Below, piece after piece: positions 59,808 through 62,589 of a stretch of DNA of 64,000 nucleotides (position 1 is the first letter of the stretch; every line of letters starts with the position of its first letter). The notes beneath the pieces were generated by a model. That model made no database searches, had not been told where the DNA came from, and saw only the letters and a list, made by a program, of their open reading frames with translations. The stretch is taken from sequence record OR437326.1; one strand, written 5' to 3'. A program made the position numbers and the translations under genes. The DNA is from Escherichia phage iGC_PHA_EC001.

Positions 59808-59827
59808 GAGGGGGATTTCTCCCCCTC
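59808..59827 (-). terminator. 8-bp GC-rich hairpin between TerD-like and hydrolase genes (weak U tract)
   Basis: GAGGGGGA-TTTC-TCCCCCTC; flanks not strongly U-rich on the transcribed strand. Confidence 0.35.
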
Positions 59828-59845: not shown

Positions 59846-60448
59846 TTATGGACATTCATACCATTCTTTTTTACCACCGAAGGCCATCACCACATCACAA
59901 ATATCCAGACCAGCTTTACCTACACCATATGCTTTCAGCTTCCATTCCCCATCTTCACGAACCAAGGAAGCCACGTGGCAGATTGTGTTGCCAGCTACTT
60001 CAGGAGCCAGGAAGTCAAAATCCAGAATTTCCACATTGCGCTCGGAGTCGAAGATTTTAAGCATACCTTCAGAAGCATGACCAAAACGTTTCAGACCTGT
60101 ATCATCATCAATGGTCAGAACAAAGGCAATCTCTTGTGCATCAGGAGAGATTTTAGCCAGAGTAATATCAATCTGCTCCATGCTGCCAGTTCCATCACGA
60201 ACATCGTCACCAGCGAAGGTAGAACGTTCAGGATCAAACTTGTTAGCATAGCAAACCAGATGACGTGCAGACAGCATTTCAGGATTACCAGCGGCATTGT
60301 GACGACAAACCAGTGCACTTACATCCAGATCCAGTTTAGAATCAGATTTCCAAGAGAATTCCAGGCGCAGTTCTTTCAGAGCCGGAGCAACTTTCTTCAG
60401 GGAAATTTTTTCGCTAGAGCCTTTTTTCAGGGAAATTTTATCAGTCAT
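59846..60448 (-). CDS. TerD-family protein
   Basis: Tandem ISLKKG...ISLKK N-terminal repeats, DLDVSALV, GDDVRDGTG acidic metal-binding-like loop, IAFVLTI, EDGEWKLKAYGVG all parallel E. coli TerD. Confidence 0.7.
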   Translation of the reverse strand: MTDKISLKKGSSEKISLKKVAPALKELRLEFSWKSDSKLDLDVSALVCRHNAAGNPEMLSARHLVCYANKFDPERSTFAGDDVRDGTGSMEQIDITLAKISPDAQEIAFVLTIDDDTGLKRFGHASEGMLKIFDSERNVEILDFDFLAPEVAGNTICHVASLVREDGEWKLKAYGVGKAGLDICDVVMAFGGKKEWYECP

Positions 60449-60463: not shown

Positions 60464-60733
60464 TTATTTAAGTGTAATACCAGTTACAGTCAATTCTACT
60501 TCCAAAAGCTTAGATGTGTTTTGGATTGATACTAATTGTGCATGATGGTTTAGTTCTACAGCAGAATAATCATTTTCCCCATCATCTACTTTTAAATAAA
60601 CAATGATTTCACTAAGGTCTAAACCATTTTCGTCAAATGCATTTTCATAGACGAAAGTATCTCCTACATCCAAATCTTTAATGGTAAGGCATCGTTTATT
60701 TACTTTTTGCTCATCAATTTCGAAGTTTAACAC
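60464..60733 (-). CDS. hypothetical small protein, paralogue of 61755..62033
   Basis: Shares DLDVGDTFVYENAFDENGLD ... EVELTVTGITLK blocks with the other copy. Confidence 0.4.
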   Translation of the reverse strand: MLNFEIDEQKVNKRCLTIKDLDVGDTFVYENAFDENGLDLSEIIVYLKVDDGENDYSAVELNHHAQLVSIQNTSKLLEVELTVTGITLK

Positions 60734-60962
60734 TTCTTCCTCCTAATGTTATCTCCGGTTTGTATATACGAAGAATTATAGCATTTTCATTTTCTTTGTC
60801 AACCCATTCTTCATAATCGGGCCATACATGAATCTCTACTCTACTTACAATATCTTCCATTCGCACAGTCCCAATGAAATACTCTTTGAGACTGCGCATA
60901 ATGAAAGCTTCTCTCTCGCGCCAATAATTTTCTATGACTTGAGAGGCAAGCTCGTCGATCAT
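60714..60962 (-). CDS. hypothetical protein (82 aa)
   Basis: ORF track. Confidence 0.35.
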   Translation of the reverse strand: MIDELASQVIENYWREREAFIMRSLKEYFIGTVRMEDIVSRVEIHVWPDYEEWVDKENENAIILRIYKPEITLGGRSVKLRN

Positions 60963-61753
60963 TTTTTAGCACCCACTTTAACAACCCACTCTCCGAACTC
61001 TTCAGATAAGAGTTTGTCATAAAGCTCTGAATCTGTCAAGTCTAAATCTTTAATGCCAATAAAACCAACATTATCATAAGCATTTGCCAGTTCTTTCAGG
61101 AAGCCAAACTTCTCATTACCAACGCCAACCATGAACCAATAAATAGGTTTATTCTTATTCTCTTCGATAAGACGACGAACAGCACTAGGATCACCATTCT
61201 CACCATCCGTCTGGAAGAATACAACACTAGGGGTAACGTCAGCACCTGGTTCAGATACAGCTACAACTTTTTCACGCTCTACAGACACTGTTTCAGTTTT
61301 ACCAAGCAGACGATTAAAGAAGCCTTTCTTTGGAGCCTCCTCTTGTACCACTTGTTTAGTGGTAATATATTTAGTAACAGTGCCAAAATACTCATCGTAG
61401 ATATCCGCCATTACAGGGGCGTAATTTGTTCCACCTCCGATACGAACATTACGCATACATTTACCAACATAGTCATCGTAAACATCTGCTGTTGCTGGAG
61501 TAAGCTCTTGGGAACTCGTATTGAAGGCCCACATATCAATTTGTTGATTATCGTCGAACAGCATACCAAAAGGAAGCAGTTTACCTACAAAATCACTCAC
61601 TACCCCACTAGAATATAGACCATGCATACTACCAGAAATATCTAGAGCACATGCTACACGAAGAACAATCTTACCTTCATTCAGGTTCTTATTCTTTTTC
61701 AGAGAGAAAGCAAGGTTTTCTTGACGTTTTTTCAGGCTGATTTTCTCGGACAT
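60959..61753 (-). CDS. von Willebrand factor A domain protein (TerY-like) with TerD-type N-terminal repeat
   Basis: MIDAS motif in ACALDISGSMHG (DxSxS); N-terminus MSEKISLKK echoes the TerD N-terminus. Confidence 0.55.
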   Translation of the reverse strand: MSEKISLKKRQENLAFSLKKNKNLNEGKIVLRVACALDISGSMHGLYSSGVVSDFVGKLLPFGMLFDDNQQIDMWAFNTSSQELTPATADVYDDYVGKCMRNVRIGGGTNYAPVMADIYDEYFGTVTKYITTKQVVQEEAPKKGFFNRLLGKTETVSVEREKVVAVSEPGADVTPSVVFFQTDGENGDPSAVRRLIEENKNKPIYWFMVGVGNEKFGFLKELANAYDNVGFIGIKDLDLTDSELYDKLLSEEFGEWVVKVGAKK

Positions 61754-61754
61754 A

Positions 61755-62033
61755 TTATTTCTCCTTTTTAAGTGTAATATTGGTAACTTCTAAATCTACT
61801 TCCACCATATTTGTATCTGGTGGGATGCAATGAGTATAGCCTCGTTGTGCTAGTGATCCATTAATACAAATCGCACTGTTTGTGGAATTTTTAATGAACA
61901 CCAAGTTACGGTAGGTATCCAACCCTGCGTCTTCATAGGCATCATAATACATGAATGTTGCCCCTACGTCAAGATCTTCGAAAGCAATAGGTAAATCTTG
62001 ACTTTTTTCTTCTTGAATATTGAATCTAAACAC
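61755..62033 (-). CDS. hypothetical small protein, paralogue of 60464..60733 (GTG start)
   Basis: GTG at 62033 with GAGGAGG 5 nt upstream aligns with the start of the paralogue; track start 62099 overlaps upstream gene by 74 nt. Confidence 0.4.
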   Translation of the reverse strand: MFRFNIQEEKSQDLPIAFEDLDVGATFMYYDAYEDAGLDTYRNLVFIKNSTNSAICINGSLAQRGYTHCIPPDTNMVEVDLEVTNITLKKEK

Positions 62034-62589
62034 GCATACCTCCTCTACCAATTTTGAAGCCCAAATCGTAAGCTTCCTTAGTGATCTTTTGTAACTCACT
62101 TATAGGAAGTGTTACAAGAGGATCATCTTCTTCAATTTCCATCTTGTCATCTTCTGTTTCAATGAGAGTATTATGCACTTTGTGATAAGGGTTGTCAACA
62201 CGTTTAAACTTATTCTTTTCTGTGCTGAAAAAACAATCTGGATCTTCTTCACCATCACCCCAACCTTGGTTAGGATCTCCGTCAGATTGTTCTGTAGGGA
62301 TTTCACCTGTAAAGTACTCTTCCAGCACCATAGCGATACCGTCCCTTGGATTTGAGGAATGCATCAAATCACAAACCTTACTCCAATCCATAGCCCATTC
62401 AAATCGTTCACGAACGCCGTTTTCATCCTCCTTTCCAGAGAAAACACAACCATAACTATCATAGTTGCCATACATCTCTTCAATAACAACACCGTCCTTC
62501 AAAAGAAAAAGATAACAAGGTGATCCGTCGAAAGAAGTAGAAAGGGCAGCTTTGCCCGATTCTTTGCACAAAAAGCTAAAACAACCCAT
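62026..62589 (-). CDS. hypothetical acidic protein (187 aa)
   Basis: ORF track. Confidence 0.4.
   Translation of the reverse strand: MGCFSFLCKESGKAALSTSFDGSPCYLFLLKDGVVIEEMYGNYDSYGCVFSGKEDENGVRERFEWAMDWSKVCDLMHSSNPRDGIAMVLEEYFTGEIPTEQSDGDPNQGWGDGEEDPDCFFSTEKNKFKRVDNPYHKVHNTLIETEDDKMEIEEDDPLVTLPISELQKITKEAYDLGFKIGRGGMRV

Follow-up and report, generated by a model that had tools for sequence, protein, structure and literature searches.

Results

Two paralogous small genes in a phage Ter cluster

The DNA analysed here, referred to below as the window, is a stretch of 64,000 nucleotides from Escherichia phage iGC_PHA_EC001 (OR437326.1) that ends in a cluster of Ter (tellurite-resistance-like) genes. 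Two small genes of a single family, copy A and copy B, lie in this cluster immediately upstream of the genes for a TerD-domain protein and a TerF-like vWA protein, respectively. In all 17 phage loci for which we reconstructed the local gene order, a member of the family adjoins vWA and/or TerD, and we suggest that the small protein is an accessory of these two Ter proteins in one lineage of phages. The minus strand is the coding strand for all of the genes discussed, and their order of transcription is TelA-like gene, three tiny open reading frames (ORFs), gene for a 187-aa acidic protein, copy B, vWA-TerF-like gene, 82-aa ORF, copy A, TerD and SleB-type cell-wall hydrolase gene (Table 1).

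Between 59.7 and 64.0 kb the window is 98-99% identical to many Phapecoctavirus genomes (for example phAPEC8, ESCO13, ZCKP1 and TSP7_1), which are E. coli myophages of ~150 kb belonging to the Stephanstirmvirinae; the window is thus phAPEC8-like. Just past its end, the cluster continues upstream in identical phages with genes for SprT-like and TerC-type membrane proteins, a phosphatase, a phosphoribosyltransferase (PRTase) and hydrolases, as seen in contig L011 and in SF1-1, a fully annotated twin phage. Phage-borne Ter modules with TelA, TerF-type vWA, TerD, TerC and PRTase/HAD components have been described (Iyer et al., 2021, PMC7824862; phiKp34, PMC8386662), and the window has TelA, vWA-TerF-like and TerD genes in the canonical order. 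From this gene content, the window genes represent the phage-borne Ter system already in the literature.

A preliminary description of this DNA, made from its sequence, had claimed that the two small ORFs are paralogous and had proposed a pairwise alignment as the check. The similarity is significant: BLASTP aligns them over their full length with 32/93 identities (34%; E=2e-14). Both also belong end to end to PHROG 11278, a family of unknown function, with copy A covering 1-89 (7e-45) and copy B 1-92 (4.2e-51) of its 92 profile positions, and a hidden Markov model (HMM) of the family found copies A and B, and no others, in the 64-kb window. Each GTG start stands 5 nt after a GGAGG-type ribosome-binding site (AGGAGG for copy A, GAGGAGG for copy B). 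The frame of copy B is open to 62099; 62033 is the start annotated in relatives, and the coordinates in the preliminary description equal the annotated coding sequence there. Copies A and B are therefore real genes and anciently diverged paralogues, and small genes of this kind are annotated as coding sequences in more than 100 phage records.

The stop codon of copy A is followed after 15 nt by the start of TerD, which begins MTDKISLKKGSSEKISLKK, and that of copy B after 1 nt by the start of vWA, which begins MSEKISLKKRQENLAFSLKK. The ribosome-binding site of vWA is supplied by the final codons of copy B (AAG GAG AAA) and, for both small genes, the site used by the next gene falls inside their closing codons or directly behind them. 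Such tight packing (1-15 nt) allows translational coupling. Translated in all six frames, the whole window contains the pentapeptide ISLKK in three places only, at the TerD and vWA starts. Thus, the earlier statement that each small ORF directly precedes a protein beginning M..KISLKK is borne out at both starts, although the second of these proteins is vWA-TerF-like and resembles TerD over only ~20 residues. Similarly, there are indeed two paralogues, one before TerD and one before vWA, but the 'duplicated two-gene units' of the preliminary description do not form a simple tandem duplication, because the extra 82-aa ORF separates vWA from copy A. We also asked whether this ORF derives from the 187-aa gene as a fragment, in which case the duplicated unit would have been larger, and rejected the idea for want of similarity (E=0.057).

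At their 3' ends (60467-60503 and 61758-61794, minus strand), copies A and B match at 28/37 nt, with the exact runs TGGAAGTAGA and TATTACACTTAA. This likeness at the DNA level exceeds what 34% protein identity would lead one to expect, and it extends through the ribosome-binding site into the opening codons of each downstream gene (ATG.C.GA.AAAAT...CCTGAAAAAA). It might be due to gene conversion acting locally, or to a context for translational coupling that the two genes have in common.

The family is small and always found beside vWA or TerD

With a six-sequence profile, a word-indexed search across 5.8 billion clustered proteins returned 22 matches. A 21-sequence profile, run exhaustively with HMMER against 1.84 billion representatives, returned 20, of which 19 are real. 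The rejected match, P0034, is a 1191-aa FN3-repeat protein and a repeat-inflated false positive. Real members have 54-93 aa (mostly 87-93) and a single domain, with no fusions, and in the exhaustive scan profile matches in distant contigs were as strong as 1e-31. Among GenBank phages the family occurs in 126 records, at two places each in Phapecoctavirus and at one in Justusliebigvirus and others. Genes for vWA-TerF-like proteins are present in 211 phage records, and the small family coincides with them only in the ~130 of Stephanstirmvirinae type. When 185,579 species genomes were scanned by means of the vWA gene, 69 loci were recovered and just one of them, L017, carried the small family; a search of IMG/VR with the family alignment found only three loci. 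No member was found away from this context in any genome in the searches of 5.8 billion and 1.84 billion proteins. The family is confined to phAPEC8/phi92-like phages (Stephanstirmvirinae) and a few metagenomic relatives.

Across the loci examined, a small copy adjoins vWA and/or TerD in four gene orders, and the gene downstream of it, wherever this lies on the contig, is vWA, TerD or another small copy. The first order (i), small>vWA>TerD, is that of phi92, Klebsiella phage 05F01, L014 and L015. The second (ii), small>vWA>82aa>small>TerD, is found in the window, phiWec179, L011, L016 and L017; the third (iii), vWA>small>TerD, in L005, L006, L007 and L013; and the fourth (iv), vWA>small>small>TerD, in L008-L010. 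Only small>TerD is visible in L004, because the contig begins at the small gene, and L012, where the sequence breaks off immediately before vWA and the remainder reads vWA>82aa>small>TerD, probably has order ii. The side of vWA taken by the small copy therefore varies between loci. Co-occurrence in other genomes had been proposed as a further check on the association: the neighbourhood is kept in 17/17 loci, far beyond this phage, but many Ter loci have no family member.

A neighbour-joining tree of the small copies (87 columns, weakly resolved) places the pre-TerD copies of order ii in one clade, where copy A clusters with those of L003, L011 and L016, and the pre-vWA copies of orders i and ii in its sister clade; the mid-position copies fall outside both. 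In the simplest history, the ancestral small copy would have been flanked by vWA and TerD. Duplication close to the root of the Stephanstirmvirinae would then have placed one copy before each of the two genes, and Justusliebigvirus and 05F01 would later have lost both the 82-aa gene and the pre-TerD copy.

The small protein is acidic and predicted to form a beta-barrel

AlphaFold2, given a 21-sequence alignment, modelled small protein B with a pLDDT (predicted local distance difference test score) of 83 and a pTM (predicted template-modelling score) of 0.72. The model has five strands (residues 26-29, 46-50, 53-56, 67-69 and 75-79) and one helix (30-36), and the protein is predicted to be a small five-strand beta-barrel with a weak resemblance to the SH3-like class, whose members include the L2 C-terminal domain, FeoA/DtxR-SH3, KOW and Tudor. 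Foldseek found nothing significant for it in the PDB, and a fold search of BFVD at E<1e-4 returned essentially only the small family itself. Sequence searches were equally unproductive. With 23 members the best Pfam value was 0.032, to unrelated families, and no curated SH3-like family (FeoA, KOW) was matched; a match to DUF5006, which scored 13 bits where the cut-off is 34 (E=0.046), was rejected as noise. There was no match to NCBIfam, none to PDB sequences better than E=0.2, and none to the TerD profile PF02342 even at E values of 0.1 to 1. Furthermore, PADLOC-DB defence profiles gave no matches for the small proteins or for the 82-aa, 187-aa, vWA, TerD and TelA proteins.

The conserved positions of the family are mostly hydrophobic, together with a G-L-D turn and one Asn, and none looks catalytic. 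All 23 members are acidic, with isoelectric points (pI) of 4.3-5.3 and net charges of -2 to -11, which argues against nucleic-acid binding by the small protein. TerD and vWA each carry +4.5 over their first 25 residues, and the acidity of the small protein would fit binding to basic surfaces such as these. Ratios of non-synonymous to synonymous substitution rates (dN/dS) are 0.22-0.38 for the small genes and 0.06-0.16 for vWA and TerD, with dS near saturation; the small genes are under purifying selection that is relaxed relative to vWA and TerD.

Expression signals point to a TerD excess

An extended -10 sigma-70 site matching the consensus at 12/12 positions is located within the 82-aa ORF and precedes copy A by ~40 nt. 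The identical 12/12 site is found at equal distance in the diverged two-copy loci L003, L011 and L016, and it is conserved in 4/4 two-copy loci tested. Promoter-like sites also precede the small(-small)-TerD genes of L010 (11/12) and L013 (10/12) and, in phi92, which has no copy A, a 10/12 site stands directly upstream of TerD. These conserved sites, which are consensus matches only, make 'small + TerD' look like one promoter-driven unit. A GC-rich hairpin just past TerD, GAGGGGGA-GAAA-TCCCCCTC, may mark the end of the transcription unit; it was not called by the terminator scan because it has no T-run.

The codon usage of TerD is strongly E. coli-optimal (Leu CTG 17/19, Arg CGT/CGC 8/8), whereas copy A has CTG at 0/12 Leu codons. 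This suggests that TerD is very highly expressed in infection and that its output far exceeds that of small protein A from the same putative transcript. With TerD predicted to be in such large excess, the small protein would be a sub-stoichiometric factor, not a 1:1 structural partner. All neighbours of TerD differ from it in codon usage.

The KISLKK N-terminus belongs to the vWA/TerD pair

The core proteins exceed the gathering cut-offs of their Pfam models, with scores of 131.1 bits for vWA against PF10138 (gathering cut-off 29.4), 98.9 bits for TerD against PF02342 (cut-off 25.3) and 99.9 bits for the TelA-like protein against PF05816 (gathering cut-off 30). The vWA protein contains a DxSxS motif of the metal-ion-dependent adhesion site type (D38-I-S40-G-S42); across 44 homologues D38, S42 and D183 do not vary, and S40 hardly does. 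Like TerF, a fusion of TerD and vWA domains, it matches the Pfam model of the TerF C-terminus and keeps ~20 TerD-like residues at its N-terminus. Unlike TerF, it has no TerD domain, and its first ~20 residues are modelled as helix: in the AlphaFold2 model (pLDDT 90.8), residues 7-20 form a helix (pLDDT ~80-90), not a TerD-like hairpin, so that the segment is probably not a free docking peptide. In TerD itself, the KISLKK segment belongs to the Pfam domain, the match to which starts at residue 5.

The KISLKK N-terminus is kept in the vWA protein of every locus, regardless of the position of the small gene. In addition, the first ~20 residues of vWA mirror the N-terminus of the TerD of the same genome in the Stephanstirmvirinae, Burkholderia, CcrColossus and Acinetobacter phage 313, the pairs being MITLEKR.../MINLSKG... 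in Burkholderia (L019), ...INLAK.../...INLTK... in CcrColossus and LLQFDLVK.../MLQFDLCK... in Acinetobacter phage 313. As these outside genomes have the likeness and no small gene, the motif is a property of the vWA/TerD pair, independent of the small protein. The likeness could reflect co-variation, gene conversion or a vestige of TerF, and the vWA segment is perhaps such a vestige of a TerD+vWA fusion. The modelled helix and the independence of the motif weaken the idea that the small protein recognizes the KISLKK segment.

The vWA protein also has an insertion (residues 125-169; window 61247-61381, minus strand) that forms a long two-stranded beta-arm in the AlphaFold model, with a short helix at its tip that carries the invariant residues K143, G144, F145, L149 and G151 (KGFxxxLxG). 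This tip could contact the membrane or a partner.

Neighbouring genes

The features of the locus, and those of other loci that are compared with it, are collected in Table 1.

Table 1. Positions of the genes and other features discussed (L numbers denote other loci)
Feature	Sequence	Position	Strand	Evidence or context
TelA-like gene	Window	63155..63994	-	PF05816 2e-28; phrog_5890 'tellurite resistance' 3e-109, profile positions 90-372 of 374
187-aa very acidic protein, no function assigned	Window	62026..62589	-	phrog_14928 2e-125; no Pfam match
Small paralogue B (pre-vWA), 92 aa, GTG start	Window	61755..62033	-	phrog_11278 4e-51; pI 4.43
vWA-TerF-like protein, 264 aa, N-terminal KISLKK...SLKK segment	Window	60959..61753	-	PF10138 7.8e-38
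TerD-like N-terminus of vWA	Window	61694-61753	-	
82-aa ORF, restricted to the two-copy (Phapecoctavirus-type) arrangement	Window	60714..60962	-	phrog_22387 8e-58
Putative sigma-70 promoter, perfect consensus (consensus match only)	Window	60775..60802	-	12/12, TTGACA-16-TATAAT with TG
Small paralogue A (pre-TerD), 89 aa, GTG start	Window	60464..60733	-	phrog_11278 7e-45; pI 4.26
TerD-domain protein, 200 aa	Window	59846..60448	-	PF02342 3.2e-28, residues 5-179
GC-rich hairpin just past TerD	Window	59808..59827	-	Read from sequence
TerD-like N-terminus of vWA	L019	2998-3060		
TerD-like N-terminus of vWA	L087	3501-3570		
TerD-like N-terminus of vWA	L088	3495-3560		
Other acidic protein	L089	3153-3485		Before vWA
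Other acidic protein	L090	4244-4594		Between vWA and TerD

The N-terminal ~90 codons of the TelA-like gene lie past the end of the window, so the listed ATG at 63994 is internal; in Shigella phage SF1-1 the full gene has 1113 nt. The stop codon of the 187-aa gene overlaps the GTG start of copy B. Its product (pI 4.39, net charge -20, with the Cys-rich N-terminus MGCFSFLCKESG) is conserved as phi92 gp175, and the gene always stands ahead of the pre-vWA small copy in Phapecoctavirus and phi92. The 82-aa ORF is found in L003, L011 and L012 and is missing from phi92 and 05F01; its dN/dS against L011 is 0.22.

Discussion

We interpret the small protein as an accessory or modulator of the TerD and vWA proteins of phages, one that is optional and restricted to a single lineage, and put the probability of this at roughly one half; that the proteins bind is something we only infer. 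It would be co-expressed with TerD and vWA, in lower amounts than TerD, and would bind or modulate one or both of them as an adaptor, an assembly factor or an inhibitor. The module that it would serve is the one running PRTase/HAD ... TerC ... TelA - vWA(TerF-like) - TerD. FeoA and the C-terminal SH3-like domains of DtxR may provide a parallel, as small SH3-like partners encoded beside the protein acted upon.

Several observations weigh against this interpretation. First, part of the conserved adjacency is inherited synteny and not independent evidence, because all of the loci lie within one broad phage lineage. Secondly, there is no family member in the syntenic relatives L089-L092, which were found via vWA and read TelA...vWA>TerD>hydrolase, in the Ter-carrying phages CcrColossus and Acinetobacter phage 313, or in the bacterial TelA-vWA-TerC-TerD operons among the 69 scanned vWA loci, where the sole match, L017, is a phage contig. 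ORFs near vWA in these loci were tried as candidate members (87, 110, 116, 129 and 228 aa in L089, L090 and L091, 57 aa in Acinetobacter phage 313, and those of CcrColossus) and none belongs to the family. Thirdly, the same slots in L089 and L090 hold another acidic protein of ~110-116 aa (MK.LIIYENVPETT...VVTGFIY) that has no HMM similarity to the small family; it may be an analogous replacement, and the slot could be a mere hot spot for unrelated small genes. The absences show the small protein to be a lineage-specific, dispensable add-on and not a core Ter component: its linkage to core Ter genes is conserved (17/17 loci), and it does not occur across bacterial and other phage Ter systems. 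Gene order differs too. In the bacterial and Caulobacter-phage versions inspected, TerC lies between vWA and TerD (TelA>vWA>TerC>TerD in CcrColossus and Burkholderia), whereas in the phages studied here this place is taken by one or more small genes; Acinetobacter phage 313 has the order TerD, 57-aa hydrophobic peptide (membrane-like by eye), vWA and TerC.

The main rival to an accessory role is that the small gene is a hitch-hiker, encoding a host-takeover or anti-defence protein whose host target is unrelated to Ter, in a variable slot that collects small early genes. We regard this as possible, if somewhat doubtful. It explains the fast evolution of the small genes, which is several-fold that of vWA and TerD, their dispensability in L089-L092 and in every bacterial Ter operon scanned, and the replacement by an unrelated acidic protein in the slots of L089 and L090. 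Many phage inhibitor proteins are small and acidic, as is this one, and the strong host-type promoter directly upstream of copy A (a consensus match) would suit such a gene as well. However, the adjacency to vWA/TerD has outlasted at least three rearrangements and two duplications in the 17 loci, family members were found nowhere else in any genome searched, and the genes are packed so closely to the next start that they carry its ribosome-binding site in or just past their last codons.

A stricter form of the partner idea, put forward in the preliminary description, holds that each small protein is dedicated to the product encoded immediately downstream; the contact would be made through its N-terminal M..KISLKK segment, and the acidic C-terminal strand of the small protein, EVDLEVTNITLK, might pair with the basic KISLKK strand. 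Wherever it lies on the contig, the downstream gene is vWA, TerD or another small copy, the charges of the small proteins and of the two N-terminal 25-mers are complementary, and the alternating residues of EVDLEV and KISLKK could pair as beta-strands. Nevertheless, we think this form unlikely. Justusliebigvirus (phi92), Klebsiella phage 05F01 and several metagenomic relatives have both vWA and TerD and a single small gene to serve them, and L089-L092 have vWA>TerD and no family member at all, so that a dedicated partner for each KISLKK protein does not hold as a rule; the 1:1 pattern is specific to Phapecoctavirus and most relatives are single-copy. Moreover, the N-terminus of vWA mirrors that of TerD in Burkholderia, CcrColossus and Acinetobacter phage 313 without any small protein, the segment is part of the Pfam domain in TerD, and in vWA it is modelled as helix. 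Among versions of the partner idea, the one that gives every KISLKK protein its own partner has the least support.

It is similarly improbable that the small acidic barrel is a true, unrecognized subunit of phage Ter assemblies that docks on the lysine-rich N-termini of TerD and vWA and controls the assembly of TerD, vWA and TelA at the membrane, with one copy per client in Phapecoctavirus. Docking would then occur by a charge-complementary beta-strand or by helix capture, and would set when and where the abundant TerD joins vWA and TelA. A further alternative, that the protein is a nucleic-acid-binding regulator of TerD/vWA expression of the SH3-like, KOW-like or Tudor-like type, seems very improbable given the acidity of all members and the absence of sequence matches to Pfam, NCBIfam or PDB families. 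Finally, chance similarity or non-coding ORFs, for which only the short length of the genes speaks, are refuted by the alignment of the two copies, the strength of the distant profile matches, dN/dS below 0.4, a confident AlphaFold model and annotation in many phage records.

The TerD, TelA and vWA passages of the two papers on phage Ter modules (PMC7824862, PMC8386662) are silent on a small beta-barrel accessory, and PHROG 11278 has no annotation of function or context, to which we add here the link to vWA/TerD, the duplication history and a fold prediction. These three aspects appear to be undescribed in the literature searched. Bacteria, plasmids and large phages widely carry Ter clusters, whose mechanism is obscure. 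If the small protein binds TerD or vWA, it would offer a handle for pull-down and dissection of a phage Ter complex in an easy coliphage, and an example of a lineage-specific regulator added onto a stress module that is itself conserved. If there is no such binding, we are left with another quickly evolving small gene of phages to which no function is assigned. In both cases the scope stays narrow, being limited to a single phage subfamily and a few relatives from metagenomes, and the find is a modest one, an accessory inside a known system, that will interest mainly those who work on Ter systems or phAPEC8-like phages.

Two observations concern the records themselves. L017 (JAEZZU010000159.1) is labelled 'MAG: Proteobacteria bacterium', but its vWA is 100% identical to that of the window and its Ter genes are arranged in the same two-copy order; the contig is that of a Phapecoctavirus and was binned into a bacterial metagenome-assembled genome (MAG). 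Similarly, Campylobacter phage B15 (MG065650), Acinetobacter phage ABPW7 (OP562383) and Klebsiella phage ZCKP1 (MH252123) are ~99% identical to E. coli Phapecoctavirus over the 4.3-kb region; contamination or an unusually wide host range may explain the hosts given in these records.

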